From Escherichia phage vB_ESM-pEJ01: a stretch of DNA of 64,000 nucleotides. The stretch lies in sequence record OP114734.1; one strand, written 5' to 3'. Each line of letters opens with the position of its first letter. Positions within the stretch are counted from its first letter, which is position 1. Positions 17,604 to 63,761 of the stretch are shown piece by piece. A program made the translations under genes and the position numbers. Below the pieces are notes generated by a model. The model did not search any database. It was not told the origin of the DNA and saw only the letters and a program-made list of their open reading frames with translations.

Positions 17604-18424
17604 TTAGTCACCTCACCGAAAATTGTAAATTGTCTACGATTCTCATCGCCGAAAGATTCTACTACGTCGTTTACCTTGACGCAAGTCCCTCGCGGTAAAA
17701 TTACTTCACATTCGCAAGGGTTCCATGCAATTGACCCAACAACAAAACCTTTATGATCTTTTACGTCAATTACCCATGATACATTACAAGAATGTTGCAT
17801 CTTTCCGGTCATTGATTCATATCGATTCTCACAATAAAGGCTAGTGCTGTTTGATAGCCATCCTCCAAAGATGATCGGTGTCATGCTGGTAGATACAAAG
17901 TTTTTAAAGGTAAACTCCTTATCTTCAATGATACGCTCTATTGTCTGAATGTCAAGATGTTGACCTCGATAAAGAGTACCGTTTAACTTTTCGGTTTTAT
18001 CCATGACACAATCCATCAAATCAACAATCTCTGATATCTCATCGGTCATGTCTTCTTCCCCTAAGAGAGCACCATTTACCCATTCGTATTGTTCAGACAC
18101 ATAATCACAGATTGCATTATATTCTGCTGGGGTTATGTTGTTATGTTTGTAATGTTTGAATACATTATCTCCAAAGTCTTCGGAGTGTACTTCATACATC
18201 ACATTAATGATTTTCTTGACAAATCCATAATCTTGTGTCTCGCGCTCAAGGAAGCGGATAACCTTCACATAATCATCAAAGTTAATCTGATCGCTGATCA
18301 TCTCAGTGATCATGTAACCATTAATCCCCTCAATGTCATATGTTTCGATGTAATTATCCATACGTTCCATCATTGATTCGCGTGATTCTTCTGAAAGACG
18401 AAAATCCTGTAATTTCTTGAACAT
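17600..18424 (-). CDS. ADP-ribosyltransferase, Alt/Mod-like (274 aa)
   Basis: R-S-ExE triad: LYRGQ, STS, ECEVILPRG; paralogous to the Alt catalytic domain. Confidence 0.7.
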   Translation of the reverse strand: MFKKLQDFRLSEESRESMMERMDNYIETYDIEGINGYMITEMISDQINFDDYVKVIRFLERETQDYGFVKKIINVMYEVHSEDFGDNVFKHYKHNNITPAEYNAICDYVSEQYEWVNGALLGEEDMTDEISEIVDLMDCVMDKTEKLNGTLYRGQHLDIQTIERIIEDKEFTFKNFVSTSMTPIIFGGWLSNSTSLYCENRYESMTGKMQHSCNVSWVIDVKDHKGFVVGSIAWNPCECEVILPRGTCVKVNDVVESFGDENRRQFTIFGEVTK

Positions 18425-18502
18425 TTTAAACCTCCCATATAACAGAAAACGGGGCTAGTATAAAACTAGTCCCCGTTTGAGTCAACCATTATTTCTTAAA
18501 AA

Positions 18503-20621: not shown

Positions 20622-20834
20622 TTATAATGCACCATCGAGCAATTGCTCTAATGTGTATCCTGAATAGTCTTTTTCAATCAGGATATATTTTCCTACTCGT
20701 TTAATACAACCGCGCATTTCAACGTATTCTGCGTAGTTGATGGTGCGAGTTGTTCCATCTTCTAGCAAAGCAGTACCGATTTCGTTAATGCGGTCATAAG
20801 TTACGTCGGTAATGATGATTTCGATGTTAGCCAT
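20622..20834 (-). CDS. Hypothetical small early protein (70 aa)
   Basis: ATG at MANIEIIITD preceded by AGGAG; promoter 40 nt upstream. Confidence 0.55.
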   Translation of the reverse strand: MANIEIIITDVTYDRINEIGTALLEDGTTRTINYAEYVEMRGCIKRVGKYILIEKDYSGYTLEQLLDGAL

Positions 20835-20870
20835 TTGATACTCCTTAGTAGTTCGTTTCGGTATGTGTGC

Positions 20871-20900
20871 ATTATAGGGGATCACCGATCCCCCTGTCAA
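20871..20900 (-). promoter_or_regulatory. Early promoter (TTGACA-N18-TATAAT on - strand) with GGGGATC/GATCCCC palindrome in the spacer
   Basis: Plus strand reads ATTATAGGGGATCACCGATCCCCCTGTCAA. Confidence 0.6.
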
Positions 20901-20907
20901 CAACTTT

Positions 20908-21426
20908 TTAGTTATTTTTTAATTGTTCATCTTGCAATAATGCAATCACATGCTGGCGATGCTCTTCTGATTGAGGCACACCAAAAAAGTTTGTTTTGTA
21001 GAAATACTCTAATCGGTCTTCTCGTGTGCTCTCTTCCATCATGATCGCGGGTAGTCCGAGATTTCGGAAACGTCGCTTTTCTGCTGGCGTAAAATCACTG
21101 TAATACAACATAGAATCATCATTACCAGCAATGCTAAACTCATCCTTCATGAAAGAGAATATTGCGTTTAAACGCTGTTTACCGTCCACGATTTCGATCT
21201 CATAGCGAGAGCCATCATCAATCTTAGCCATTGCGATAGAGCCTACCGGAAAATCATTAATCATGTTTTCGATAAACATACGTTTGTTTTCGGTGTCCCA
21301 TACCAAAGGACGCTGATAATCTGGGTTCATGTTGATATAGCCATCTTCTAACCATGCCTCATAAACAGAGATGACAAAGTTTTTAGTATTGGTATAGTAA
21401 CGGCGTTTAGGCGTTAAACGGTTCAT
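20908..21426 (-). CDS. DUF262 / ParB-like nuclease-domain protein
   Basis: NPDYQRPLVWD and IVDGKQRLNAI (DGQQR-type motif); ATG at MNRL after AGGAG. Confidence 0.6.
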   Translation of the reverse strand: MNRLTPKRRYYTNTKNFVISVYEAWLEDGYINMNPDYQRPLVWDTENKRMFIENMINDFPVGSIAMAKIDDGSRYEIEIVDGKQRLNAIFSFMKDEFSIAGNDDSMLYYSDFTPAEKRRFRNLGLPAIMMEESTREDRLEYFYKTNFFGVPQSEEHRQHVIALLQDEQLKNN

Positions 21427-21427
21427 G

Positions 21428-21760
21428 TTATAGTCTCCTGAATGGATCATCACGTAAATCAATATCTTTTAAGAACTCATCCCATGAATGGCGGATATTA
21501 TTCTTAATTCTCCAGATAAGCGAAGGGATTGAACGCTCTCCCATCTGGAAGTATGGATCATATGATCCGTATGCCCAATATGCTACTACAATTCCGCAAT
21601 CAGTGCAATAGTATTCTATCTCGCTTGCTGGCGACCAAAGTCCATCAATATGATCACGGATCTTGCTTTCAATGTTATGACTATGGCAATCAGGGCAACG
21701 GATGCAATGACCTTGTTTGTCATAATTTGACGTTAGCGAATACTTAAACAATCTCATCAT
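21428..21760 (-). CDS. Zinc-ribbon protein (110 aa)
   Basis: CIRCPDC...CTDC (two CxxC pairs); start overlaps upstream stop. Confidence 0.5.
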   Translation of the reverse strand: MMRLFKYSLTSNYDKQGHCIRCPDCHSHNIESKIRDHIDGLWSPASEIEYYCTDCGIVVAYWAYGSYDPYFQMGERSIPSLIWRIKNNIRHSWDEFLKDIDLRDDPFRRL

Positions 21761-22473
21761 AGATCCTTATTGGCTTCAAATACTGCCTTTGCGAATCCTC
21801 GCGGGGTAAGTGACCTGATAGTCTTTGTTCTGGTTCCTTTCCCGCCTAGCTTAGAATGCTGTTTACTGTACCCTTTATTAATCGGCAACGGTTTCTTTTC
21901 TGGCATTATAAAGCCTTGTCCGGTCCATAAGCAAGTCTTTTTCGGGTACATATCACGGGCGGCAATATACTCAGGAAACGTAGGATGTATATCATCTTCC
22001 GGCAAATAACCGCCATATTCCCACGGGTGGAACATGTAATCAGGCTTACGCCACATGCTAGAGATAACGCTTACAGGATTCTCTATCATGTAGGGAACTC
22101 CTAGCCATTCACCCAAATAAGCGGTTATTTTAGCTGCCCGTACATCATGAACTTGAATCAACGGTCCTTGTTCTAGTTTCTTTCGTTCAAAGTGCGCAGC
22201 GCCACTAACAGCTAAATTGGTGCACGGTGGGAATGCAAAGATAATATCCGGTTTCCCCCATTCAAGGTCCATTGCTCTTTCCAGCCAGTTCAAATCAATC
22301 CAGGTGTTTACATAGGTAATGTTTTGATGTTCAAATCGGGTATTATATTTTTTGTATGTACCGTGGTCGCCATCGTCAGCATTAAAGCAGATCACCTTAT
22401 GACCTGCTTTAGCCCATTCTAACCCCATTATCCCCGATCCGTCAAAGTTGCAGAATATTAATTTTTGTTTCAC
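21757..22473 (-). CDS. C5-cytosine methyltransferase-like protein, truncated (238 aa)
   Basis: Motif I-like FCNFDGSG, motif IV-like FPPCTNLAVSGA (Pro-Cys), motif VI-like MIENP; no obvious target-recognition domain. Confidence 0.4.
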   Translation of the reverse strand: MKQKLIFCNFDGSGIMGLEWAKAGHKVICFNADDGDHGTYKKYNTRFEHQNITYVNTWIDLNWLERAMDLEWGKPDIIFAFPPCTNLAVSGAAHFERKKLEQGPLIQVHDVRAAKITAYLGEWLGVPYMIENPVSVISSMWRKPDYMFHPWEYGGYLPEDDIHPTFPEYIAARDMYPKKTCLWTGQGFIMPEKKPLPINKGYSKQHSKLGGKGTRTKTIRSLTPRGFAKAVFEANKDL

Positions 22474-22721
22474 GCTGCCCCCATTGGTTTGATAGTAACA
22501 GAATCTAAAAGACCTTTGTTAGCCAGTTCGCGGCAAGTTTTCAGATCCGCAACTTCCCAGCCAGCCGCAATCAGGTTATCGATTAGGCTGTTAGCAACTT
22601 CTTCGCTCATGAAAGAGCACTGTTTGCCGATGGTGTAGCGTACACGCTGTAATTTCAGTTTACGGAAGCCTTTAACGTTCAGGTCTTTAGCGATTTTCTT
22701 TGCGGTTTCGATGTTAGCCAT
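22470..22721 (-). CDS. Hypothetical small early protein (83 aa)
   Basis: First gene after promoter 22762..22790; coupled to downstream gene. Confidence 0.55.
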   Translation of the reverse strand: MANIETAKKIAKDLNVKGFRKLKLQRVRYTIGKQCSFMSEEVANSLIDNLIAAGWEVADLKTCRELANKGLLDSVTIKPMGAA

Positions 22722-22761
22722 TGTTTGATTCTCCTAAGTGGTATCTCGTCTTGATGGTTGT

Positions 22762-22790
22762 ATTGTAGGGGAGTTATCCTCCCCTGTCAA
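22762..22790 (-). promoter_or_regulatory. Early promoter (TTGACA-N17-TACAAT) with GGGGAG/CTCCCC palindrome
   Basis: Plus strand reads ATTGTAGGGGAGTTATCCTCCCCTGTCAA. Confidence 0.55.
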
Positions 22791-22804
22791 CACTTTTTAT
22801 AAAA

Positions 22805-22972
22805 TTATTTGTTAATTTCTGGTGCGTTGCTAGGATAGTAACCTTCTTTAACTCCGAGATATTTCGCAACCATCCCTACAATCTTCTGTGCTACTACAAT
22901 GTCAAATTTCAGATAATCTTCGCCGTGGGTTTCAATGATATATGCTTCACATGCTGCTTTAGTCTCGAACAT
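22805..22972 (-). CDS. Small early protein (55 aa), paralogue of 26083..26250
   Basis: MFETKAACEAYIIETHGEDYLKFDIVVAQK...; about 85% nt identity to the second copy. Confidence 0.6.
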   Translation of the reverse strand: MFETKAACEAYIIETHGEDYLKFDIVVAQKIVGMVAKYLGVKEGYYPSNAPEINK

Positions 22973-23005
22973 TTTGATTCTCCTATTTCGTTTCGTTATG
23001 TGTGT

Positions 23006-23034
23006 ATTATAGGGGATCTCCAGATCCCCGTCAA
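23006..23034 (-). promoter_or_regulatory. Early promoter (TTGACG-N17-TATAAT) with GGGGATC/GATCCCC palindrome
   Basis: Plus strand reads ATTATAGGGGATCTCCAGATCCCCGTCAA. Confidence 0.6.
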
Positions 23035-23048
23035 CAACTTTTTTAAAA

Positions 23049-23330
23049 TTATTCGTGATTAGTTTCGATGTTGTGCATTTTGCACCAGTTCAGCCAATCA
23101 CCCAGATCCTGATAGTTAATGCTTTTATCTGCTGCCATCGTTTTTGTCTTGATACCCATATGTGCGTTATGAGTAAGCATTTTTACAGTGAACTCAATTT
23201 TATCACCTTTAGCTTTAACATCAACCAGTTTGGTCCACTGGCTACCAGCGCCGCGAATGTTCATACCAACGATGTTTCCGATGTATGCTTCTTTGTTTTT
23301 CAGGATTTCGGTTGCTTTGATGAATTTCAT
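23049..23330 (-). CDS. Hypothetical small early protein (93 aa)
   Basis: ORF with own promoter and AGGAG ribosome-binding site. Confidence 0.55.
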   Translation of the reverse strand: MKFIKATEILKNKEAYIGNIVGMNIRGAGSQWTKLVDVKAKGDKIEFTVKMLTHNAHMGIKTKTMAADKSINYQDLGDWLNWCKMHNIETNHE

Positions 23331-23363
23331 TTTTGATTCTCCAGTTCGTTTCGGTATGTGTGT

Positions 23364-23392
23364 ATTATGCTATGTTCTTACTTTGGTGTCAA
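23364..23392 (-). promoter_or_regulatory. Early promoter (TTGACA-N17-CATAAT)
   Basis: Same upstream AAAAAGTTGTTGACA context as neighbours. Confidence 0.5.
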
Positions 23393-23400
23393 CAACTTTT

Positions 23401-23670
23401 TTAGATATTTTCAGAAATAAATTTTAAAACTTGACGTAAATGTTTCTCATCTTTGATAGTCGCCGGAAGTTCTTCTTTTACTTCCTGTGCAAGATAGATA
23501 TTTCCGTTCCAAGTGAAAGATCCGTCTTCGTTTACGCGATAGCTGAACATCCACTCGCAATCATTTTCGATTTCATATACACACAGAAGGGTGTAATCGT
23601 TAAAGCTATTGATTTCAAGGTCGAAGCCGTGACGTTTTGCAAAGTTGGTAGTGGTTTTAGTCAGCGCCAT
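23401..23670 (-). CDS. Hypothetical small early protein (89 aa)
   Basis: ORF with own promoter and AGGAG ribosome-binding site. Confidence 0.55.
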   Translation of the reverse strand: MALTKTTTNFAKRHGFDLEINSFNDYTLLCVYEIENDCEWMFSYRVNEDGSFTWNGNIYLAQEVKEELPATIKDEKHLRQVLKFISENI

Positions 23671-23710
23671 TGTTTGATTCTCCTAAGTGGTATCTCGTTT
23701 CGATGGGTGT

Positions 23711-23739
23711 ATTATGCTATAGGCGTGATCTGGTGTCAA
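23711..23739 (-). promoter_or_regulatory. Early promoter (TTGACA-N17-CATAAT)
   Basis: Plus strand reads ATTATGCTATAGGCGTGATCTGGTGTCAA. Confidence 0.5.
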
Positions 23740-23768
23740 CAACTTTTTTAAAATTTTATGCAATAAAA

Positions 23769-23788
23769 AGCCGACACTAAGGTCGGCT
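23769..23788 (-). terminator. Intrinsic terminator (- strand)
   Basis: Stem AGCCGAC/GTCGGCT with T-run on the - strand. Confidence 0.55.
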
Positions 23789-23795
23789 AATAAAA

Positions 23796-24104
23796 TCATT
23801 TAGACAAATAATCATTCAGTGCAATCCGGTCGGCATGTTCCGGCGTTACGTCAATCGCAATCAGTTTAACGCGTGCTTTCTTGCGACCTGGGTTTTCTCG
23901 TAACCAGTGCTCATGACCGTGAACATTTTTATACTGCGATGCTTCTTCGAAGGTACGGATCGGACCTGGGTAATCAGCGTAAAGGATCTCTAGGTCATCG
24001 GTGATGTAAAAATATACGTTGTAATTGCTGTTCTCTAGTTTAAGCAGAGACATTCGGAACATTGGGAGATTTTCGCGGGTAAATTCAAAGATATTATCTT
24101 TCAT
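23796..24104 (-). CDS. HxHW-family small protein, member 1 (102 aa)
   Basis: ATG at MKDNIFEF after GAGGA; motif HGHEHW...VKLIAIDV. Confidence 0.55.
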   Translation of the reverse strand: MKDNIFEFTRENLPMFRMSLLKLENSNYNVYFYITDDLEILYADYPGPIRTFEEASQYKNVHGHEHWLRENPGRKKARVKLIAIDVTPEHADRIALNDYLSK

Positions 24105-24153
24105 AGTATTATCCTCAATAGTTGGATGAAACGGGGGCTTAACGCCCCGTATA

Positions 24154-24441
24154 TTAAAACAGCCCTTCCTGTACACCGTAGTAGAGTTCATCGCTGATAA
24201 TTTCATTAATGCGACGGTGTGCATATTCCTGATTTGCGAAGTTGTCAGCAAGTTCTACTTTAGTTTCGCCGTCATGAGTCCATTTAGTGATAACTTTACC
24301 ATCTGCAAATTTGAAGTTGAACTCTTTAGCTACCGCATCGCGTACCAGACGTGCAAACTTGTTGTTGCGGATTGCATTGTCGGTTTCGTGTGCAGCGTGA
24401 GCGAATTTGTTAACTTTCAGAGTGATAGTAATGTATGCCAT
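24154..24441 (-). CDS. Hypothetical small early protein (95 aa), paralogue of 27727..28038
   Basis: Shared segment VRDAVAKEFNFK vs VRKALAKEFNTK. Confidence 0.5.
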   Translation of the reverse strand: MAYITITLKVNKFAHAAHETDNAIRNNKFARLVRDAVAKEFNFKFADGKVITKWTHDGETKVELADNFANQEYAHRRINEIISDELYYGVQEGLF

Positions 24442-24487
24442 AATTTGATTCTCCTAGTTAGAAAGTGTATCTCGTTTCGATGGGTGT

Positions 24488-24516
24488 ATTATGCTATACA
24501 CCCGATCTTATGTCAA
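24488..24516 (-). promoter_or_regulatory. Early promoter (TTGACA-N17-CATAAT) with GGGTGTA/TACACCC palindrome around the -10
   Basis: Plus strand reads ATTATGCTATACACCCGATCTTATGTCAA. Confidence 0.5.
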
Positions 24517-24522
24517 CACTTT

Positions 24523-24801
24523 TTATAAAATAATTTTTTGATATTTTTCTATGATGTTCGTGTAAGTCACATCAACCGCTATCACCGTTGCTTCGAATCC
24601 ACCGTTTAGCCAATGGCTATGGTCATGATCGTGAAAGAAACCAAGACCAGTACGAAGACCTTCTTTATATTCGGCGCGTACATTTAGATCATCATCGATA
24701 AACAGATAAAACCATGAATTTTTACTAGGATTGATGATACAACCTTTCAGATTAGGGAGAATATCACGACTAAGAATAAACTTATCACCTACTTTGAACA
24801 T
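24523..24801 (-). CDS. HxHW-family small protein, member 2 (92 aa)
   Basis: ATG at MFKVGDK after GAGGA; motif HDHDHSHW...VIAVDV. Confidence 0.55.
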   Translation of the reverse strand: MFKVGDKFILSRDILPNLKGCIINPSKNSWFYLFIDDDLNVRAEYKEGLRTGLGFFHDHDHSHWLNGGFEATVIAVDVTYTNIIEKYQKIIL

Positions 24802-24815
24802 AATATTTTCCTCAC

Positions 24816-25124
24816 TTATAAAGTTTGACCGTTGTTTTTCGCGTAATGCTGAATGCGTGCTTGATCTGCTTCCGCTGGTGATAGATTCCATGCAACCACT
24901 ACAACTTCTGACGCATCGTCATCCGTTTCTGATACCCAATGATTGTGATTCATACAGTTATTTGCTATCGAGTGAGCAAATGATTTCATCACTGGAGACG
25001 TATAATCATAGTAACGGATTTTCAGATTTTCATCAACATACAAGTAGATCGTATAAGGTTTATATTCAGTAACCAGTAACAGACAGTTACGCAATTCTGG
25101 GAAAATCTTTTTAGTTAATTTCAT
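24816..25124 (-). CDS. HxHW-family small protein, member 3 (102 aa)
   Basis: ATG at MKLTKK after GAGGA; motif NHNHW...VVVVAW. Confidence 0.5.
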   Translation of the reverse strand: MKLTKKIFPELRNCLLLVTEYKPYTIYLYVDENLKIRYYDYTSPVMKSFAHSIANNCMNHNHWVSETDDDASEVVVVAWNLSPAEADQARIQHYAKNNGQTL

Positions 25125-25125
25125 T

Positions 25126-25344
25126 TTATAATCCTCGGTCTCGGCTATAGTACACGGTACGCCATACAATTTCATGTTTCGTGTCGCTCCAGCACACGAT
25201 CTCATTTACTCTTAAATCTTTGTTATCAACAAAAGATGAACATTGTGACGCTTCTTTCATCATTTTATCTGCTGTTTTCTCATCAAATACAGCACAGATT
25301 TCTTTATACACTCGATAATCTTTGAATTGACTCTGAATACCCAT
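25126..25344 (-). CDS. Small Cys-containing protein (72 aa), paralogue of 25304..25567
   Basis: SQFKDYRVYKEICAVFDEKTADKMMKEASQCSSF vs SKFKEYKAYQQILRVYAPEFAEKMMEDASKCPSF. Confidence 0.45.
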   Translation of the reverse strand: MGIQSQFKDYRVYKEICAVFDEKTADKMMKEASQCSSFVDNKDLRVNEIVCWSDTKHEIVWRTVYYSRDRGL

Positions 25345-25567
25345 AATTAACACCATTCCAACCAATTGTTTTTGAGAAAACGTCTATCCACTGTTGAGTG
25401 TAGCATGTTTCTTTCCATGATACAATACGAGTGGAATAATGGTTTTTGTTTCCAGAAAAGGACGGGCATTTTGATGCATCTTCCATCATCTTTTCGGCGA
25501 ACTCTGGTGCGTATACTCGCAGGATCTGTTGATATGCTTTGTATTCTTTAAATTTGCTCATAATCAT
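25304..25567 (-). CDS. Small Cys-containing protein (87 aa), paralogue of 25126..25344
   Basis: See paralogue; overlaps neighbours by a few codons. Confidence 0.45.
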   Translation of the reverse strand: MIMSKFKEYKAYQQILRVYAPEFAEKMMEDASKCPSFSGNKNHYSTRIVSWKETCYTQQWIDVFSKTIGWNGVNYGYSESIQRLSSV

Positions 25568-25826
25568 TCACTACCTTATCAGCTTCTTTTGTTGTTTTTA
25601 CATCAACTGCGATAACTCGTAAAGGTTCGTCATGGTTCCACCAGTGGTCATGAATATCAGCTTGTGATTTATCACCAAAGGAATCACGAATATCATTTTT
25701 ACATTTATAGCTAATGTGACCTTCATAGTCAACATAAAGGTAATTATCGAAAATCGGCGTTTTTAAGATCATACCGAAAAATCTTTCTTTGTGTGTCTTA
25801 TCCAGCGTTACAGTAATTCGCATCAT
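25548..25826 (-). CDS. HxHW-family small protein, member 4 (92 aa)
   Basis: Motif HDHWWNHDEPLRVIAVDV; AGAGGA ribosome-binding site. Confidence 0.55.
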   Translation of the reverse strand: MMRITVTLDKTHKERFFGMILKTPIFDNYLYVDYEGHISYKCKNDIRDSFGDKSQADIHDHWWNHDEPLRVIAVDVKTTKEADKVVNDYEQI

Positions 25827-25838
25827 AATATATTCCTC

Positions 25839-26018
25839 TTAGAAAGGGATGGTCATTTCTTGAGCTTGTACATTCTCGTTAGGATTAAACTTCATCCAAC
25901 CGATATTGTCTACCAGCATATGTACATTTTTATCATATCCTACGTGAGTAGTCAACACTAAATGTGCTTTACCTTCAACGATGATTTCCATGTACTTCTG
26001 AACTTCGATAGCTTTCAT
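25839..26018 (-). CDS. Hypothetical small early protein (59 aa)
   Basis: ATG after GGAGAATCAAA leader; MKAIEVQKYMEIIVEGKAHLV... Confidence 0.45.
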   Translation of the reverse strand: MKAIEVQKYMEIIVEGKAHLVLTTHVGYDKNVHMLVDNIGWMKFNPNENVQAQEMTIPF

Positions 26019-26050
26019 TTTGATTCTCCGTTTGTTGTCTTGATGGGAGT

Positions 26051-26079
26051 ATCTTACTACTCCCTTTAATCATTGTCAA
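26051..26079 (-). promoter_or_regulatory. Early promoter (TTGACA-N17-TAAGAT) inside GGGAGTA/TACTCCC palindrome
   Basis: Plus strand reads GGGAGTATCTTACTACTCCCTTTAATCATTGTCAA. Confidence 0.5.
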
Positions 26080-26082
26080 CTA

Positions 26083-26250
26083 TTATTTGTTAATTTCCGG
26101 TGCGTTGCTCGGATAGTAACCTTCTTTAACACCTAGATATTTTGCAACCATTCCGGTGATCTTCTGTGCTACTACGATATCGAATTTCAGGTAGTCTTCA
26201 CCGTGGTTTGCTACAATGTATGCTTCGCATTCTGCTTTAGTCTGGAACAT
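26083..26250 (-). CDS. Small early protein (55 aa), paralogue of 22805..22972
   Basis: MFQTKAECEAYIVANHGEDYLKFDIVVAQK... Confidence 0.6.
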   Translation of the reverse strand: MFQTKAECEAYIVANHGEDYLKFDIVVAQKITGMVAKYLGVKEGYYPSNAPEINK

Positions 26251-26284
26251 TTTTGATTCTCCTATATCTCGTTGGTATGTGTGC

Positions 26285-26313
26285 ATTATAGGGGATCGGT
26301 GATCCCCTGTCAA
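26285..26313 (-). promoter_or_regulatory. Early promoter (TTGACA-N17-TATAAT) with GGGGATC/GATCCCC palindrome
   Basis: Plus strand reads ATTATAGGGGATCGGTGATCCCCTGTCAA. Confidence 0.6.
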
Positions 26314-26320
26314 CAACTTT

Positions 26321-26623
26321 TTATTCTTCATCTTTATCTTGATATGCGTACTTCATAAATTTGTCTGCTACTTTGTCCGCGTTTTCAGGTTCTACGTCTG
26401 ACGCTAGGACAACAGCTAGTTCGGTTTTGTCGTTTCCATCATACCAATGATTATGAGTGTCGTTTTCTTCGATATAAAACGAATCGTTTGGAGTTGTGCG
26501 ACAATATACGTCTAAATTCCCATCGATATAAAAGATCCAATCCGAATACAAAATGATTGTTTTAGCAAGATTTTTATTGTCTCTTACAAAAGGTTCCGCG
26601 ACAAATAGCTTAGTTTGTTCCAT
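26321..26623 (-). CDS. HxHW-family small protein, member 5 (100 aa)
   Basis: ATG at MEQTKLF after GAGGA; motif THNHWYDG...LAVVLASDV. Confidence 0.55.
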   Translation of the reverse strand: MEQTKLFVAEPFVRDNKNLAKTIILYSDWIFYIDGNLDVYCRTTPNDSFYIEENDTHNHWYDGNDKTELAVVLASDVEPENADKVADKFMKYAYQDKDEE

Positions 26624-26639
26624 AATATTTTCCTCAAAA

Positions 26640-26828
26640 TTATACAGCTTCGTAAACTTCCCAATGTTCAGCACCAACACGCTTAACGAAAAGGTTTTCT
26701 TTGATGTTATTCATAAACGTCTGGATGGATTTAATGCGGTTGGAAGGTTTCCAGTCTTCGTTGGCATTGCGGTGATACATAATATTACCAGTTCGCTTAT
26801 ATTCAGCAACCATTTTAAGACCACACAT
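26640..26828 (-). CDS. Hypothetical small early protein (62 aa)
   Basis: ATG after GAGGA ribosome-binding site. Confidence 0.45.
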   Translation of the reverse strand: MCGLKMVAEYKRTGNIMYHRNANEDWKPSNRIKSIQTFMNNIKENLFVKRVGAEHWEVYEAV

Positions 26829-26884
26829 AATATTATCCTCAATTTGTGGGAGAGTATTACCCTCCCGATTATTGTTATACTACA

Positions 26885-27187
26885 TTACGCAAAATGGCGT
26901 GTCAATGCTTCTTTTGCTGTTCCGCTAAGATTCTCGATCTCTCCTGGCATAACATCAACCGCCAGAACTTCTACAACATCCTCTGATCCTAACCAGTGAG
27001 TATGACCTTTGTAGAACTTGATATCCCATTTATCGCTATCGCTAGCCCACCACACATCACCGTCTATAAAGTTGATGTAAAGCACACTACGACACATTGA
27101 ATTAGTTACTTTCAATACTGCGCCTTTCATCTCTTCCACGGTATGGTCTTCCATTTTGAAGACCTCGCCTACCTTAACTTTTGCCAT
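26885..27187 (-). CDS. HxHW-family small protein, member 6 (100 aa)
   Basis: ATG at MAKVKVG; motif GHTHW...VLAVDV. Confidence 0.55.
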   Translation of the reverse strand: MAKVKVGEVFKMEDHTVEEMKGAVLKVTNSMCRSVLYINFIDGDVWWASDSDKWDIKFYKGHTHWLGSEDVVEVLAVDVMPGEIENLSGTAKEALTRHFA

Positions 27188-27188
27188 G

Positions 27189-27455
27189 TTACATGCTCCG
27201 AATATGTTTAGATGCATCTTCCAGTTCGTCGATAGTGACACTGTGAGCCAGTAAGTGTACTGGTTGTGGTTCTTCACCTTCCATAGTATTGATCAGATGA
27301 CCGTTTCCTGGGTGGAATGTATCGTTGCCGTTCCAAATAGCATACACATCATCTTCTGTTACGTAGATAATAAGTCCAATCGGTGATTCTGGTAATTGAA
27401 AAATTTTACCCACTGCATCTTTGCGATTGTTTACGATATCTTTTACTGTCTTCAT
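27189..27455 (-). CDS. Small early protein (88 aa), possible divergent HxHW-family member
   Basis: FHPGNGHLIN...VHLLAHSV in the equivalent position; GAGAGG ribosome-binding site. Confidence 0.45.
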   Translation of the reverse strand: MKTVKDIVNNRKDAVGKIFQLPESPIGLIIYVTEDDVYAIWNGNDTFHPGNGHLINTMEGEEPQPVHLLAHSVTIDELEDASKHIRSM

Positions 27456-27474
27456 TTAGTTACCTCTCGTTAAA

Positions 27475-27654
27475 TTACATCACAATCACGCCAGCCGTTG
27501 AAAGTTGATGTTTCAACTGAGCATTTTCTGCTACTGTCAAATCAATGATTTCTTGTGACGCTGCAATCATATAGCCATTGGTGATATTGTTTTGCATCAG
27601 TTCAATGGTCTCTTCGTTGTAGCGGATTTTAGCGATGATTTCGTTGAAGTTCAT
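27475..27654 (-). CDS. Hypothetical small early protein (59 aa)
   Basis: ATG after AGGAGAATCAATT leader; MNFNEIIAKIRYNEETIELMQ... Confidence 0.45.
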   Translation of the reverse strand: MNFNEIIAKIRYNEETIELMQNNITNGYMIAASQEIIDLTVAENAQLKHQLSTAGVIVM

Positions 27655-27688
27655 AATTGATTCTCCTAGTTCTTTTCGGTATGTGTGT

Positions 27689-27718
27689 AGTATAGGGGAG
27701 TTTAACCTCCCCTGTCAA
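27689..27718 (-). promoter_or_regulatory. Early promoter (TTGACA-N18-TATACT) with GGGGAG/CTCCCC palindrome
   Basis: Plus strand reads AGTATAGGGGAGTTTAACCTCCCCTGTCAA. Confidence 0.55.
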
Positions 27719-27726
27719 CAACTTTT

Positions 27727-28038
27727 TTAAAGTTTTTCCATGATAACGGTCATAATTACATCTTCTGCGCGAGCGGTCAGATTATCGGCGTCAGCATGTG
27801 GGCGGTTGGTTGTTACAGAGATAACACCGTTGCGCACTGGTTTAATATTGATATCAAGATGGTCCGCGAAACGTTCGCCAGTTACAGAATGAATTTTGGT
27901 GTTAAATTCTTTTGCCAGTGCCTTGCGAACTTCACGAATCAGGGTAGCGTTTTTCAGTTGGTTCTCCGCGCTCATGGTCTTCTGGGTGTTCATGGTTCCG
28001 TCGAAGTCAATCATTGGCAGCGTTACGATGTATTTCAT
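27727..28038 (-). CDS. Hypothetical small early protein (103 aa), paralogue of 24154..24441
   Basis: Shared AKEFN segment. Confidence 0.5.
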   Translation of the reverse strand: MKYIVTLPMIDFDGTMNTQKTMSAENQLKNATLIREVRKALAKEFNTKIHSVTGERFADHLDINIKPVRNGVISVTTNRPHADADNLTARAEDVIMTVIMEKL

Positions 28039-28083
28039 TTTTGATTCTCCGTTTAAGAAAGTATGTTTCGTTTTGATGTGTGT

Positions 28084-28112
28084 AGTATAGGGGATATGTG
28101 ATCCCCTGTCAA
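28084..28112 (-). promoter_or_regulatory. Early promoter (TTGACA-N17-TATACT) with GGGGAT/ATCCCC palindrome
   Basis: Plus strand reads AGTATAGGGGATATGTGATCCCCTGTCAA. Confidence 0.55.
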
Positions 28113-28125
28113 CAACTTTTTTGAA

Positions 28126-36124: not shown

Positions 36125-36523
36125 TTAACTTTCCAGAATATCGCGAGCTTCGTTACGCTCCTTGATGATTTTCAGGACAAATTCCAGTTTTTCTTTGTTC
36201 AGCGTTCCATTTTCCATTGCTTCTTTGACGGTAAACACTCCGCCACCTTGCCCGTATACAGTGACAGTGATTTCACCTAACATCGTGGTATGAAAACCTC
36301 CAATTTTCGGTGATTCGAAAGAAACAATTACCTCGCGGACAGTATTACCGTCGTTGATTTCTGAGAGGGTAATGTCGTTTTTGTAGGCGGTTGCTTTAAC
36401 CATACGGATCAGCATAGTCTGATCTGGGGAGATGGTCATTTTGTCCATTGCATGTTGCAATGCAGCGTAACCGAAAACTTTAACGAAGTCCAGAACGTCT
36501 TTGCGAGTTTGAAATTTAATCAT
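36125..36523 (-). CDS. Hypothetical protein (132 aa)
   Basis: ORF with own promoter; no recognisable motif. Confidence 0.55.
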   Translation of the reverse strand: MIKFQTRKDVLDFVKVFGYAALQHAMDKMTISPDQTMLIRMVKATAYKNDITLSEINDGNTVREVIVSFESPKIGGFHTTMLGEITVTVYGQGGGVFTVKEAMENGTLNKEKLEFVLKIIKERNEARDILES

Positions 36524-36556
36524 CTTGATACTCCTTAGTTGTTTTGGTATGGGAGT

Positions 36557-36585
36557 ATCTTACTACTCCCGTGATATGCTGTCAA
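36557..36585 (-). promoter_or_regulatory. Early promoter (TTGACA-N17-TAAGAT) inside GGGAGTA/TACTCCC palindrome
   Basis: Plus strand reads GGGAGTATCTTACTACTCCCGTGATATGCTGTCAA. Confidence 0.5.
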
Positions 36586-36593
36586 CTGCTTTT

Positions 36594-36743
36594 TTATGCA
36601 ACCGCAAACATCAACATTTGAACATTCTTGGCTGTCTGGCTTTCAAAGTTCTGACATTCTTTGATAATGTCCTCTACTTTCTCGCCGGAGATCTCCGCGT
36701 AAGTTTCGATTGCCATTTTCAGTACCGAGTCAAAGTTGTTCAT
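36594..36743 (-). CDS. Hypothetical small protein (49 aa)
   Basis: ATG after AGGAGAATCAAA leader; MNNFDSVLKMAIETYAEISGEK... Confidence 0.4.
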   Translation of the reverse strand: MNNFDSVLKMAIETYAEISGEKVEDIIKECQNFESQTAKNVQMLMFAVA

Positions 36744-36783
36744 TTGATTCTCCTTAAAGTGTATTTCGTTTCGATGGGGGGGT

Positions 36784-36812
36784 ATATTACTACCCCCGTT
36801 TCATGCTGTCAA
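36784..36812 (-). promoter_or_regulatory. Early promoter (TTGACA-N17-TAATAT) with GGGGGTA/TACCCCC palindrome
   Basis: Plus strand reads GGGGGGGTATATTACTACCCCCGTTTCATGCTGTCAA. Confidence 0.5.
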
Positions 36813-37031
36813 CTACTTTTTAATGACAAGTTCGAATTTTGCTACCTTGCGTCCTCGTTTATTGAAAGCAACCCACGGACGGTTTTCAATGTAGAACAAT
36901 TCTTCGCCAATAATGAATACTGGCTGATTGTAAAGGCGACCCATCAGGTCACGCTGGCGAATGGTAGTAGATTCGTATACTTCGCCTACTACAAAGTGCT
37001 TGCTGATAGAGTCGGTGCAAGTAAATTTCAT
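36813..37031 (-). CDS. Hypothetical small protein (72 aa)
   Basis: ORF with own promoter and ribosome-binding site. Confidence 0.5.
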   Translation of the reverse strand: MKFTCTDSISKHFVVGEVYESTTIRQRDLMGRLYNQPVFIIGEELFYIENRPWVAFNKRGRKVAKFELVIKK

Positions 37032-37064
37032 TTTGATTCTCCTTTGTTTCGTTTCGATGTGGGT

Positions 37065-37093
37065 ATATTACTACCACCGTTATTCAGTGTCAA
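37065..37093 (-). promoter_or_regulatory. Early promoter (TTGACA-N17-TAATAT)
   Basis: Plus strand reads ATATTACTACCACCGTTATTCAGTGTCAA. Confidence 0.5.
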
Positions 37094-37100
37094 CTACTTT

Positions 37101-37319
37101 TTACTTGTTGTATTCATTCCACCATTGGGTTAGCTTATCAATTATTTTTGTGTTTCTATCCAACTTCTCCCACCGTTTTCTAGGGTTTATCAACCGGAAT
37201 AGGTAAGGTGTACTTGTTAAGTGAACTCGGTCAATGTAGTGATTGATGTACTGCTTTTCGATTCTAAGTTTCATCTTTTTACGATGAAAATATGCAATGA
37301 CTTGTTCTTCTGTTTCCAT
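37101..37319 (-). CDS. Hypothetical small basic protein (72 aa)
   Basis: ORF with own promoter and ribosome-binding site. Confidence 0.5.
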   Translation of the reverse strand: METEEQVIAYFHRKKMKLRIEKQYINHYIDRVHLTSTPYLFRLINPRKRWEKLDRNTKIIDKLTQWWNEYNK

Positions 37320-37343
37320 ATGTTCCTCCGTTTCGATGTGCGT

Positions 37344-37372
37344 ATTATGCTATGGCAAGATCAGATTGTCAA
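37344..37372 (-). promoter_or_regulatory. Early promoter (TTGACA-N17-CATAAT)
   Basis: Plus strand reads ATTATGCTATGGCAAGATCAGATTGTCAA. Confidence 0.5.
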
Positions 37373-37390
37373 CACCCAATAACAAAAAAA

Positions 37391-37409
37391 GTCGCCACTA
37401 TGGGCGACT
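37391..37409 (-). terminator. Intrinsic terminator (- strand)
   Basis: Stem GTCGCC/GGCGAC with T-run on the - strand. Confidence 0.55.
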
Positions 37410-37420
37410 TTGAACAAACA

Positions 37421-39437: not shown

Positions 39438-39634
39438 TATCCGACAACCTCAAAACATTTATCATCAGGAAGAATCGCCCATTCTACACCGTATTCATCC
39501 TCGACGTAGTAGCAAGTCCCATCATGTCGAGCATCATATTCATCACCAACAACAAAGCTATCAGCTAGTTCAAAATCTACAGCAACACATTTAATTTGGT
39601 CATAATAAAATCCTCACTTGTTTTTGATGGTTGT

Positions 39635-39663
39635 ATTATAGCGGGGATTTCTCCCCGCGTCAA
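39635..39663 (-). promoter_or_regulatory. Promoter (TTGACG-N17-TATAAT) with GCGGGGA/TCCCCGC palindrome
   Basis: Plus strand reads ATTATAGCGGGGATTTCTCCCCGCGTCAA. Confidence 0.5.
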
Positions 39664-39671
39664 CACTTATT

Positions 39672-41915
39672 TTACAGCTTGCAAGATGAGCACTCGCTAG
39701 CGTCTTCCGTACCATCAGCACCATCACGCACGTTAGCGTAATACAGGGTTTTCAGACCGTAATATTGAGCAAACAACATATCATCTAACACATCAGCAAT
39801 ATCGACTTTACCAGTCTTATAAGTGCTTGGATCGTATGATGTATTGGAACTAATCGCCTGATCCACAAACTTCTGCATGATCGCTGCCAGTGTGAGATAA
39901 GGCTTGTTACCTTTCTTGATCAGTGTCCAAAGCAGGTCAATAACATCAGCATTATTCTCTACGTTCGGAATAACCTGATTAAATTGCCCTTCTTTCGATC
40001 CTTTAACCGATACAATCCCGCGAGGCGGTTCAATACCGTTTGTGCTGTTAGATACCTGAGAAGACGACTCACAAGGCATCAGCGCCGACAGTGTACTGTT
40101 ACGAATGCCATATTTTTTCAGGTCTTCGCGCAGTTCTTCCCAATCCATCTCATACACCGGATCAACCAGTTCATCTACTGTCTTTTTGTACCAGTCGATA
40201 GGAAGTTCACCGCGACCATAGCGTGTTTCGTGCATCAGTTCGCAAGCACCCTTCTCTTTAGCCAGTCGCACACTAGCCTTAATCAGAGCATATTGCAAGC
40301 GTTCAAACGTTTTATGCGTAAACTCGTTAGCGTCTTCATATGTGAAGAAATTATCTGCTAGATATGATGCAAAGTTAGTAACACCAATACCCAGAGAGCG
40401 ACGTTTTTTGGCTGTCAGAGCTTGTTCTACAGGATAATCCTGATAATCTAACAGGTTGTCAAGTGCACGCACCATAACCATAGCAATGCGTTCTACTTCT
40501 TCCATATTTTCGATATCGAAATTACCTAAAACATATGCTGCCAAAGTACATAGGCTGATCTCTGAATCATCACGCCCCATCGGTTTTGTTGGCAGCGCAA
40601 TTTCACAACACAGGTTAGATTGTTTAATCGGTGCTACATTACGAATAAACGCCCCGTGATTGTTCATGTTGTCTGTGAACGTTGGGTAGATTCGACCTGT
40701 GTTAAAACGTTCAATTGCCACCGCTAAAAACAGGTCTTCGGCTTTAACACGAGTTTTACGAACACTCGGATCTTTTTCCAGTTTTTCGTAAAGCTGGCGG
40801 AAACCTTCCTCATCTCGGAAGTATAGATCCCACAATAAGCCACCCGCAACATCTGGACTAAACAGAGTAATGTAATCCCGTTTAAGGAATCGCTCTACCA
40901 TCAGGTTATTAATCTGTACGCCGTAATCAAGATGACGAATGCGGTTATCTTCCACCCCCTTATTGTTCTTTAACACAATCAGACTTTCAAACTCTAAATG
41001 CCACATTGGGTAATAGAGAGTAGCTGCCCCGCCACGAATACCGCCTTGTGAGCATGACTTAACGGCAGTCTGAAAATGTTTCCAGAATGGGATAACGCCA
41101 GTATGACGAACTTCACCATGCCCGATCTTAGATCCTTCCGCGCGAATCATACCAGCATTGATACCGATACCAGCACGCTTGCTAATATACTTGATGATTG
41201 CATTTGCTGTTTCGTTGATGCCCTGCAATGAGTCATCACTTTCAATCACCACACACGAACTAAATTGGCGTGTTTGGGTACGCACACCTGCCATAATCGG
41301 AGTAGGCAGAGAGATTTGCTTATTCGCAACAGCATTATAAAAATCAATCACATGTTCAAGTCGATTTTCTGTCTCTTCTTGATGCAAGCACATACCGATC
41401 AGCATATACGCAAATTGCGGTGTTTCGATGATTTTCTTAGTGCTGCGATCCTGAACAAGATATTTCTCTTTTAACTGCATCGCACCAGCATAGGTCATTT
41501 TAAAATCAAGTTTATGGTCGATGAATTTCTCCAGATATTCCACTTCTTCACGGGAATATTTTTGCAGAATTTCGCGATCATATTTTCCGGTTGCAATATT
41601 ACGCTCAATATGGCTATAAAAATCAATAGGTTGGAATTGACCGTATACTGATTTACGAAGCGCGAACATTGCAAGGTTACTTGCTACATATTGATAATCA
41701 GGTGTTTCTACAGTAATGTTATCTGCGGCGACCTTAATCAATACTTTCTGGATATCATTGGTAGACATACCTTCTGTCAGAAGTGGTTCAACCATATCAA
41801 ACAATTCATATGGATCAACGTTATGACCTTCGGCTGCCGCTTCCAGAATTTTCATTACTTTTTCTTTTTCAAACGGAACAGTCAGACCGGAAGACTTAAC
41901 AACATTTTTAATCAT
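39672..41915 (-). CDS. nrdA: Ribonucleotide reductase large subunit
   Basis: 747 aa; N-terminal ATP-cone, catalytic Cys regions, C-terminal CxxC tail. Confidence 0.93.
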   Translation of the reverse strand: MIKNVVKSSGLTVPFEKEKVMKILEAAAEGHNVDPYELFDMVEPLLTEGMSTNDIQKVLIKVAADNITVETPDYQYVASNLAMFALRKSVYGQFQPIDFYSHIERNIATGKYDREILQKYSREEVEYLEKFIDHKLDFKMTYAGAMQLKEKYLVQDRSTKKIIETPQFAYMLIGMCLHQEETENRLEHVIDFYNAVANKQISLPTPIMAGVRTQTRQFSSCVVIESDDSLQGINETANAIIKYISKRAGIGINAGMIRAEGSKIGHGEVRHTGVIPFWKHFQTAVKSCSQGGIRGGAATLYYPMWHLEFESLIVLKNNKGVEDNRIRHLDYGVQINNLMVERFLKRDYITLFSPDVAGGLLWDLYFRDEEGFRQLYEKLEKDPSVRKTRVKAEDLFLAVAIERFNTGRIYPTFTDNMNNHGAFIRNVAPIKQSNLCCEIALPTKPMGRDDSEISLCTLAAYVLGNFDIENMEEVERIAMVMVRALDNLLDYQDYPVEQALTAKKRRSLGIGVTNFASYLADNFFTYEDANEFTHKTFERLQYALIKASVRLAKEKGACELMHETRYGRGELPIDWYKKTVDELVDPVYEMDWEELREDLKKYGIRNSTLSALMPCESSSQVSNSTNGIEPPRGIVSVKGSKEGQFNQVIPNVENNADVIDLLWTLIKKGNKPYLTLAAIMQKFVDQAISSNTSYDPSTYKTGKVDIADVLDDMLFAQYYGLKTLYYANVRDGADGTEDASECSSCKL

Positions 41916-44527: not shown

Positions 44528-44937
44528 CCTAATTCTTTTTCAATTTGTTTCTGGCGCTCTATGTCCTGAGTAATTTTGTATTTGTGTTCCGGTTCGTCGA
44601 TTTCATAAGCAACGTTATTAACCGGATCATAACCATCAATTCTATACCCCAATATAGGGTATTGTCGTTTTAATTTTATATTCAAAAGCTGTTCTATTGT
44701 GTCTAGTGCAATCTTTTCGGCAGCTGATAATCCAAAACGTATTCCAAAATATTGTTTCCTCACCGCTTCCGCAAGTTCTTCTGTTAAAATTATTTGCTTC
44801 TGTTTTCTACCATACACATCAAAATATTCACTATAATCATAACACAGACCTGTGTTTCTTGCAACCTTTTTTATGTCTCTAGTTACATGGGCATGACGTT
44901 TATTAAATTCTTTCGCAATATCCAGTGAGCTAATCAT
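44500..44937 (-). CDS. Rha-like N-terminal domain protein (145 aa)
   Basis: N-terminus LDIAKEFNKRHAHVTRDIKK resembles phage Rha family; C-terminal GYRIDGYD...EIDEPEHKYK. Confidence 0.4.
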   Translation of the reverse strand: MISSLDIAKEFNKRHAHVTRDIKKVARNTGLCYDYSEYFDVYGRKQKQIILTEELAEAVRKQYFGIRFGLSAAEKIALDTIEQLLNIKLKRQYPILGYRIDGYDPVNNVAYEIDEPEHKYKITQDIERQKQIEKELGCKFVRIKV

Positions 44938-44964
44938 TTTATCCTCCGTTGCTTAGATGAGTGT

Positions 44965-44992
44965 ATTATACATTACCACATCATCATGTCAA
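44965..44992 (-). promoter_or_regulatory. Early promoter (TTGACA-N16-TATAAT)
   Basis: Plus strand reads ATTATACATTACCACATCATCATGTCAA. Confidence 0.5.
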
Positions 44993-45023
44993 CACCTTTT
45001 CATAAAATTTTAGGCAATAAAAA

Positions 45024-45043
45024 AGCCTCCCCTAAGGAAGGCT
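45024..45043 (-). terminator. Intrinsic terminator after gene 32
   Basis: Stem AGCCTTCC/GGGGAGGCT with T-run on the - strand. Confidence 0.55.
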
Positions 45044-45053
45044 TTAAAATTCA

Positions 45054-62654: not shown

Positions 62655-63413
62655 TTACTTGCAAACGTATTGATCTACATCAATTGCTCCACCGAATGTA
62701 GGATGACGTTTTTCAAATCGAATAGTTCCGTCGTTTGGTTCGAAAACGGAGTATTCATATAGATCTTTCTTGCCAACATTCTTATAAAACCCGCCTTTAG
62801 TCATAACGGTTTCTTGTACGTTTGCTTTGTGTACGTTGTATTCGTCAATGTATACAAAATCAACCATCTTCCCATTTTTAATGGTTACTTTAAGATCTCC
62901 TGGTTGATTTCCATATTTGGCATACAGTGGCGCTTCTTTAATTTTTGTGGAAATTCCATCTTTCATACTCCACTCATAACGAACGGTGCATTGATAGGTA
63001 AAAGTTTCGACCTTCGGTTCTTCCACCACTTTTTCTTCCTGTTTCGGTTGTTCTTCTTCAACCTTCGCAGAAGTCTCTGAATCGCTTTCTGACGCGGTTT
63101 CTTCTTTAGGTAATACATTCATCAAGTTTTGGATTTGAGCGTTGTATACAGCCTCCAGTGGCTGAATCTGCCCGATATTGATCATTGTATCACGAACAGT
63201 TTTATTCCAGTTGCGTTGCTCTTGTTTAAGAGACGGATCAATCTTAACAGCCTTAACATACACCTCATGAAGTTTCGAATCCAGTGCTGAGATTGACTCA
63301 TTAGCACAAATAAACTTCTCTGATTTGGTAGTGGCTTTAGCGCAATCAAAGGACGCAGCATTAGCACCGAAAGCAGTAGCGGAAATAACGATAGCAGCGA
63401 TAATGTTTTTCAT
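62655..63413 (-). CDS. Secreted protein with DUF1311/LprI-like N-terminal domain (252 aa)
   Basis: Signal peptide MKNIIAAIVISATAFGANA; SFDCAKATTKSEKFICANE pattern; acidic linker. Confidence 0.5.
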   Translation of the reverse strand: MKNIIAAIVISATAFGANAASFDCAKATTKSEKFICANESISALDSKLHEVYVKAVKIDPSLKQEQRNWNKTVRDTMINIGQIQPLEAVYNAQIQNLMNVLPKEETASESDSETSAKVEEEQPKQEEKVVEEPKVETFTYQCTVRYEWSMKDGISTKIKEAPLYAKYGNQPGDLKVTIKNGKMVDFVYIDEYNVHKANVQETVMTKGGFYKNVGKKDLYEYSVFEPNDGTIRFEKRHPTFGGAIDVDQYVCK

Positions 63414-63447
63414 AATATATTCCTCAATGTTTTGTCTTGATGGGAGT

Positions 63448-63476: not shown

Positions 63477-63483
63477 CTACTTT

Positions 63484-63758: not shown

Positions 63759-63761
63759 CAA

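Follow-up and report, generated by a model that had tools for sequence, protein, structure and literature searches.

Promoters with embedded stem-loops among the small early genes of Escherichia phage vB_ESM-pEJ01 are probably PeSL cassettes of the RB49/phi1 type

What are the GC-rich palindromes that sit across the early promoters of Escherichia phage vB_ESM-pEJ01? The promoters in question lie at positions 20871-28112 of a 64,000-nucleotide (nt) stretch of the phage (OP114734.1), the whole of which is here called the window. Read on the minus strand, 20700-28300 is a series of small open reading frames (ORFs), among which a composite of promoter, palindrome and leader recurs. With a probability of about 0.9, we consider these elements to be promoter-early stem-loops (PeSLs) of an RB49/phi1-type phage, with roles as promoter, attenuator and recombination substrate. 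PeSLs were named in RB49 and phi1 by Arbiol, Comeau, Kutateladze, Adamia and Krisch (2010, Genome Biol Evol 2:140; PMC2839356), who defined them as an AT-rich region, TTGACA-N17-TATAAT, a G/C stem-loop in one of five positional subclasses, a Shine-Dalgarno sequence (SD) and ATG. The stem-loop may stand between the -35 and -10, over either box, in the upstream AT-rich region or past the -10, and 52 such elements were counted in phi1 and 51 in RB49, mostly preceding ORFans in hyperplastic regions (PMC2839356). Analogous PeSL-like elements were described in T4/PST and KVP40/nt-1 by Comeau, Arbiol and Krisch in 2014 (PMC4122927). The initial annotation implied that palindromes of this kind were new; their architecture, distribution and basic activities were published in 2010 and 2014, and the present element is a rediscovery.

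The source of the window is a Krischvirus, a T4-like coliphage of the RB49/phi1 type, and 20871-28112 shares 94-97% identity with Krischvirus genomes (the RB49, phi1, JSE and GEC-3S group). It corresponds to ORF185-ORF212 of phi1/RB49, an ORFan-rich stretch between alt and the DNA ligase gene (gp30, gene 30). The ORFs downstream of the cassettes in this span encode 55-103 amino acids (aa), most of them without a Pfam match. Promoters are already annotated at the cassette sites in the GEC-3S record. Moreover, the cassette sequence is confined to the genus Krischvirus, where 58 records carry ~7 detectable copies each.

A stricter promoter scan combined with inspection gave 20 cassettes in the window, 11 of which lie within 20871-28112; the remainder are found at 18.5, 36.5-37.4, 39.7, 45.0 and 63.4-63.8 kb (Table 1). 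The figure of about twenty promoters originally assigned to 20871-28112 is therefore right for the 64 kb and too high for that span. The same architecture had also been noted at 36.5-37.4, 39.6 and 63.4-63.7 kb, and cassettes were indeed found there. A cassette does not precede each small early gene, as had been proposed: 11 cassettes serve ~24 ORFs, and runs of 4-5 ORFs share a single one. On the minus strand the order is TAA-AAAAAGTTG-TTGACA, spacer, TATAAT-like hexamer, ACACACAT-ACCGAAACGA and AGGAGAATCAAA-ATG. The parts are thus an A-tract, GTTG-TTGACA, a spacer of 16-18 nt (mostly 17), a TATAAT-like -10, a conserved leader and GGAGAATCAAA-ATG. All 11 promoters within the span match 10-12 of 12 consensus positions and have spacers of 17-18 nt. 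In most cassettes the 14 nt upstream of the -35 are of the TAA...AAAAAGTTG type, and the AT-rich region holds the stop codon of the upstream gene. The 13-mer AAAGTTGTTGACA, allowing up to two mismatches, occurs 20 times in the window (18 on the minus strand) against 3.4 expected and a shuffle maximum of 9. The leader GGAGAATCAAA, allowing one mismatch, occurs 13 times against 1.7 expected, in agreement with the conservation that had been noted for the leaders. An unbiased repeat search picked up the elements as dispersed repeats of 51-80 nt (families D1-D4, 17 distinct copies in all), and an Rfam scan of the whole window returned no family at the gathering threshold.

Fourteen of the 20 curated cassettes hold, no more than 46 nt from the -35, an embedded hairpin made of G-run, loop and C-run, its energy lying between -10 and -20 kcal/mol. 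The threshold of -10 kcal/mol is reached by just 10.5% of background windows of 46 nt, which puts the association of minus-strand promoters with palindromes far beyond chance (binomial P ~4e-10), and z-scores against dinucleotide shuffles ranged from -1.8 to -6.3. In three cassettes the stem-loop lies further upstream, within the AT-rich region, and in one it follows the -10. Palindromes are thus found in most copies, as had been stated, with cassettes 23392 and 23739 lacking a hairpin and 26905 carrying one past the -10. All of the palindromes previously listed exist as perfect inverted repeats, with two corrections: the 3' arm at 28090 reads ATCCCC and not GATCCCC, and the one placed at 36775 starts at 36778. 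A further palindrome, GGGTGTAT/agcata/ATACACCC at 24482-24503, was missing from that list.

The window was then compared, cassette by cassette, with ten relatives (loci L001-L010). Pairing was judged from per-hairpin pair tables and a test of each arm against its own and other partners, since MAFFT columns misplace the 5' arms (loops of 3-6 nt). Twelve distinct stem sequences paired at 100% with their own partner arm, against 63-70% with arms of other cassettes. In the cassette before ORF198 the stem is GGGTGTAT/ATACACCC in the window, JSE, UPWr_E1 and G2494, and GGGGATAT/ATATCCCC in GEC-3S, phi1, RB49, G2248 and SFHK24, two pairs being altered on both sides. Variants of the type GGGGGTC/GATCCCC can still pair, but only through G·U and on the transcribed strand. 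The loops vary freely (ggt, acc, atc, gcc, aca, tgga, ggga, gataa, gttaaa, cacat, cacgt). The core of the ORF190-homologue cassette is the same or near-identical in nine of the ten relatives (the 3' arm of Phi1 is longer by one C); in UPWr_E1 its place is taken by a GGGGGATC/ggga/GATCCCC module. Cassette 28112 differs from RB49 PeSL211/210 by one loop base, and orthologues of the ORF193-homologue cassette also lack a hairpin. The modules upstream of ORF209 vary among relatives (GGGGATC with loops ggga, acc or gcc), giving a mosaic pattern, and ORF185 is likewise preceded by different hairpin modules in different phages. What is conserved is structure and not sequence, as would be expected if a folded single strand were under selection.

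The 20 promoter cores contain the tetramer GATC, a Dam site, 10 times, where 3.3 would be expected. GATC stands at roughly the same spacer position in cassettes 20900, 23034, 23739, 24516, 26313, 28112 and 37372, even where the hairpin type differs or the hairpin has been lost. Regulation through Dam was considered and set aside: the genome-wide ratio of GATC, 1.05, is ordinary, the copies are paralogues, and where a hairpin overlaps the -10 the GAT extends the stem. The recurrence of GATC in the spacer is probably due to shared ancestry together with stem extension, methylation-sensitive promoter activity being the less likely reading.

Each PeSL would then be a compact intergenic module of ~75-90 nt with three functions. 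The A-tract and near-consensus sigma-70 -35 and -10 would allow host RNA polymerase to drive early transcription of the small ORF downstream. This promoter function is supported by published reporter data and by 5'-end mapping in RB49, and orthology would extend it to the window. The wild-type clone of PeSL206/205, whose orthologue here is cassette 26313, is reported to be a strong promoter of ~13,000 Miller units (PMC2839356). Early-transcript 5' ends of RB49 were mapped previously, as cited in PMC1524935, and a literature search for transcriptomic data on RB49-type phages returned nothing beyond that mapping.

The second function concerns the hairpin. With the exception of cassette 26905, the hairpins end before the inferred start site (~7 nt past the -10); therefore, their RNA form would exist only in read-through transcripts from the upstream gene. 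There the hairpin would attenuate or terminate transcription, or form a protective 3' end, and so insulate neighbouring cassettes. The stem-loop of PeSL211/210, the orthologue of cassette 28112, is reported to have lowered the expression of lacZ to an extent comparable with rrnB T1 (PMC2839356). A separate T-tract terminator lies upstream of none of the 14 hairpin-bearing cassettes and of 3 of the 6 hairpin-less ones (Fisher P = 0.018). This complementary distribution suggests that embedded hairpins and stand-alone terminators are interchangeable. Stand-alone terminators share the GGGG...CCCC stem style and add T-tracts (20597-20620, 23769-23788, 37388-37411). The earlier suggestion of hairpins in read-through RNA that act in attenuation accords with the published promoter/terminator cassettes (PMC2839356) and with the conserved structure. 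For the stem-loops other than that of PeSL211/210, attenuation would apply by extension from this one case, and attenuation, pausing and 3'-end stabilisation are all possible.

The third function, as a recombination substrate, is shown by the comparison with relatives and has been published in the form of mini-circles: circles formed when one PeSL recombined with another were detected by inverse PCR at ORF192 and ORF210, in RB49 HPR3 (PMC2839356). Many same-orientation repeats of ~80-100 nt provide portable homology for the phage recombination machinery; an ORF between two cassettes is lost, gained or exchanged, and one chimeric cassette stays behind. BLAST of 17500-31000 against the ten relatives gave 19 distinct breakpoints, 11 of which fall within cassette footprints covering 16% of the region (P ~4e-5, a value inflated to an unknown degree because BLAST alignments run into the repeats beside indels). 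Cassette 20900 is a clean chimera left after loss of ORF186, which is absent from both the window and phage Cognac. In a three-way alignment its 78 nt (20834-20911) align to both flanking cassettes of relatives. The left part is that of GEC-3S PeSL187/186 except for one additional G in the stem G-run, the right part is identical to PeSL186/185, and the crossover falls within CATACCGAAACGA, between the -10 and the SD. Indels of ORF191, ORF192, ORF195/196 and ORF210 are cassette-bounded. The ORF192 insertion of RB49 and G2494 adjoins the upstream edge of cassette 23034 (at 23049-23053), SFHK24 and UPWr_E1 have lost ORF210, the deletion running between cassettes 27718 and 28112, and UPWr_E1 has lost ORF191 as well.

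In FL04 and Cognac, all sequence between the paralogous ORF191 and ORF205 modules is gone, a large deletion that appears to have been mediated by these paralogues and their cassettes. The homologues of ORF191 and ORF205 (22804-22975 and 26082-26253) are 85% identical over 172 nt. A common conserved stretch of 37 nt is found in the homologues of ORF198 and ORF210 (24316-24352 and 27901-27937).

Some indels have no bounding cassettes. Relative to RB49 and phi1, this phage has an additional 88-aa ORF at 27189-27455 (-), which is also present in JSE, G2248, G2494 and UPWr_E1 and absent from phi1, RB49 and GEC-3S. ORF189.1 is missing at a 16-nt repeated junction (22457-22472), and FL04 has a small ORF inserted at 21423-21426. 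These indels sit at overlapping stop/start junctions, and thus cassette-independent exchange also occurs.

Several observations weigh against assigning all three functions to these elements. Six of the 20 cassettes have no good hairpin, so the hairpin would be dispensable for promoter function. The embedded hairpins share with canonical Rho-independent terminators a GC-rich stem of 6-9 bp, a short loop and a position ~20-25 nt past the stop codon. However, a canonical intrinsic terminator also has a U-rich tract straight after its GC-rich hairpin (5 T or more in 8 nt), and here only the hairpin is present. The tail consists of the -10 hexamer (UAUAAU) or, after hairpins overlapping the -10, of AUCAAGAC or AUCGAAAC, and the first 8 nt past the stem hold 0-3 T. 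The terminator scan called no embedded hairpin, and cassette 18485 alone has one with a terminator-like tail (TTTT). Because the U-tract is absent, the hairpins would be non-canonical attenuators at best. Terminator activity is reported for one stem-loop only, in a reporter (supplementary figure S1 of PMC2839356). Finally, 7-8 breakpoints lie away from cassettes, in addition to the inflation of P already mentioned.

The initial annotation also offered the palindromes as operator sites for a dimeric regulator. As duplex-DNA operators they would let a phage or host protein switch the early promoters off or on. Such a role would suit the position of the palindromes, since a repressor bound in the spacer or across the -10 would keep RNA polymerase out, and their recurrent GGGG...CCCC core. 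It would also suit the need to shut early promoters off later in infection, RB49 having no recognised MotA or middle-promoter system (PMC1524935). However, half-site sequence, spacing and position are all variable: there are 12 different arm sequences, the centre-to-centre spacing of the arms ranges over 10-17 nt, and the hairpin position shifts, with respect to the fixed -35 and -10, among at least four registers, one of them downstream of the -10. The six promoters without a good palindrome are otherwise identical to those that have one, different hairpin modules are freely exchanged upstream of the same gene, and changes between orthologues are compensatory or G·U, keeping pairing but not sequence. 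The operator explanation was therefore rejected, and we regard it as very improbable. A role mainly after transcription fares better, although it too is unlikely. Here the hairpins would be 3'-end stabilisers, or would mark polycistronic early RNA for endonucleolytic processing, by RNase E at the AU-rich UAUAAU beside the stem or by RegB at GGAG, and would not be terminators. In its favour, the stems have no following U-tract and would occur only in read-through RNA. Stems of 6-9 bp are too short for an RNase III site, and processing by that enzyme was dropped. RegB/S1 sites, which serve early mRNA inactivation in T4, consist of a single-stranded GGAG and an A-rich stretch behind it. The leader GGAGAAUCAAA agrees with the target consensus GGAGRAYARAA (PMC1702504) in 10 of 11 places, although its position 8 is C and the favoured base there is A. 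Under the PeSL reading, too, the conserved SD region would probably be a RegB/S1 cleavage site for shut-off of early mRNA. Set against a purely post-transcriptional role are the rrnB T1-like reduction that the published reporter study assigns to one stem-loop (PMC2839356) and the apparent interchangeability with T-tract terminators; such a role is, moreover, compatible with attenuation.

A third alternative is that the stem-loops act in DNA, as hairpins or cruciforms at which a structure- or sequence-specific phage protein would excise and integrate ORF cassettes in the manner of integron attC sites, any effect on transcription being secondary. The authors who described PeSLs speculated in this direction, and one RB49 mini-circle has its crossover inside the loop (PMC2839356). 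In addition, indels are cassette-bounded, and genes for an HNH endonuclease and a GmrSD_N/DUF262 protein lie in the vicinity. Against this, crossovers share no single site: that of ORF186 falls between the -10 and the SD, those of ORF192 and ORF211 at the AT-rich edge, and that of ORF191 in the leader or ATG. This scatter favours general homologous recombination over a site-specific mechanism. Indel boundaries also fall at cassettes with no hairpin (23692/23787), 7-bp arms offer little length for cruciform extrusion, and no integrase-like gene is known in these phages (PMC2839356), which leaves a DNA-level signal with a slim chance. We give a small chance to the broader idea of a dedicated phage factor that recognises folded DNA or RNA stem-loops, leading to integron-like cassette exchange or to factor-assisted terminators that work in promoters independently of a U-tract. 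The scattered crossovers and the exchangeability with ordinary T-tract terminators again speak against it.

The PeSL assignment agrees closely with what is known of RB49 and phi1. Found here, as in those phages, are the A-rich region with a stop codon, the promoter, the stem-loop positions, the conserved SD and the ATG of an ORFan. The location in the hyperplastic region between alt and gp30 is also shared, as are cassette-bounded indels and orthologues of PeSL206/205 and PeSL211/210. A-tract, promoter, stem-loop, SD/ATG, orthology and association with indels, the sequence-level marks of an RB49/phi1-type PeSL, are thus all present. The differences are at strain level: ORF186, ORF189.1, ORF192, ORF195/196 and ORF211 are absent from this phage, and some hairpin modules have been exchanged. 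The elements of T4/PST and KVP40/nt-1 are also composites of promoter and stem-loop tied to variable ORFs. However, their promoter consensuses (TTTACW...TAYWAT in T4/PST, TTGYVH...TAWWAT in nt-1/KVP40; PMC4122927) are unlike the cassettes here, and their stems (AGNA/TCNT and A3-4G3/C3T3-4) have no sequence homology to them. As in phage morons and integron gene cassettes, a small accessory ORF carries its own expression signals and circular intermediates have been reported. Unlike in those systems, the repeated regulatory cassette is itself the homology for exchange, and no integrase or attC-type system has been identified.

Table 1. Promoter cassettes, stem-loops and terminators of the window. 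Coordinates are those of the window; (-) denotes the minus strand; MFE, minimum free energy.
Feature	Span	Promoter	Stem-loop or terminator
Cassette 5' of alt-paralogue ORF (18485)	18422..18497 (-)		hairpin 18447-18478 over -10, then TTTT; -20 kcal/mol, z -6.3
PeSL before ORF185 homologue	20832..20912 (-)	-35 20900-20895, -10 20876-20871, ATG 20834, spacer 18 nt	
Hairpin of cassette 20900	20877-20893	in spacer	GGGGATC/ggt/GATCCCC
PeSL before ORF190 homologue	22719..22802 (-)	-35 (22790), -10 TACAAT	22767-22785 AGGGGAG/gataa/CTCCCCT, between -35 and -10
PeSL before ORF191 homologue	22970..23046 (-)	-35 TTGACG at 23034	23012-23029 GGGGATC/tgga/GATCCCC
Cassette before ORF193 homologue (23392)	23328..23404 (-)	promoter, leader and SD	no hairpin, MFE 0
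Cassette before ORF194 homologue (23739)	23668..23788 (-)		5' arm lost, 3' arm ATACACCC kept
T-tract terminator just upstream of ORF194-homologue cassette	23769-23788		AGCCGAC/cttagt/GTCGGC-TTTTT
PeSL before ORF198 homologue	24439..24528 (-)	-10 CATAAT	24482-24503 GGGTGTAT/agcata/ATACACCC, overlapping -10
PeSL before ORF204 homologue	26016..26091 (-)	-10 TAAGAT	26045-26064 GGGAGTA/gtaaga/TACTCCC, overlapping -10
PeSL before ORF205 homologue (26313), orthologue of PeSL206/205	26248..26325 (-)		26290-26308
Weaker cassette before ORF207 homologue (26905)	26826..26917 (-)		26848-26866 GGGAGGGT/aat/ACTCTCCC, 3' of -10, one G·U pair
PeSL before ORF209 homologue (27718)	27652..27730 (-)	spacer 18 nt	27694-27713 AGGGGAG/gttaaa/CTCCCCT
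PeSL before ORF210 homologue (28112), orthologue of RB49 PeSL211/210	28036..28124 (-)		28089-28107 AGGGGAT/cacat/ATCCCCT
PeSL	36521..36597 (-)		36551-36570 GGGAGTA/gtaaga/TACTCCC
PeSL	36741..36824 (-)		36778-36797 GGGGGTA/gtaata/TACCCCC
Cassette with decayed hairpin	37029..37105 (-)		GGTGGTA/TACCCAC, -5.3 kcal/mol
Cassette without embedded hairpin	37317..37411 (-)		T-tract terminator 37388-37411 just upstream
PeSL between nrdA and small ORFs preceding nrdB (39663)	39601..39675 (-)	-35 TTGACG	39641-39658 GCGGGGA/gaaa/TCCCCGC
Consensus promoter without embedded hairpin	44935..45045 (-)		T-tract terminator 45022-45045 just upstream
PeSL	63411..63488 (-)		63442-63461 GGGAGTA/gtaaga/TACTCCC
PeSL	63694..63770 (-)		63723-63744 TGGGAGTAT/taac/ATACTCCCA

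Four neighbouring ORFans carry domain or annotation hints (20908-21426, 21428-21760, 21757-22473 and 28126-28602, all on the minus strand). Among them are the protein with a GmrSD_N/DUF262 (ParB-like) domain (E = 3e-20), a weak match to a TFIIB-type zinc ribbon below the Pfam cut-off, and an ORF called DNA (cytosine-5) methyltransferase in relatives, which has no Pfam match here. The HNH endonuclease is encoded beside the ligase gene. At 39577-39603 (-), 3' of the nrdA-proximal cassette 39663, the first small ORF, a homologue of RB49 ORF233, carries a frameshift: where RB49 has AAAA the window has AAA, giving an 8-codon ORF and an out-of-frame remainder. This could be a true mutation or a homopolymer sequencing error. 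Under a maximal-order Markov model, GGCC is strongly depleted in the whole window (23 observed, 68 expected, ratio 0.34), the other 4-bp palindromes having ratios of 0.66-1.05 (GATC 1.05). This may reflect avoidance of a restriction site containing GGCC.

To the published account, the present analysis adds confirmation from 10 further genomes, in the form of cassette-bounded indels, a clean chimera and compensatory changes in the stems. It also adds the absence of U-tracts behind the embedded hairpins, by which any stopping or attenuation of transcription there would be non-canonical. Taken together, a PeSL would place three jobs in one short sequence, those of promoter, transcriptional insulator and portable homology for the shuffling of accessory genes in T4-like phages, and PeSLs are in this way relevant to phage genome plasticity and host-range adaptation.

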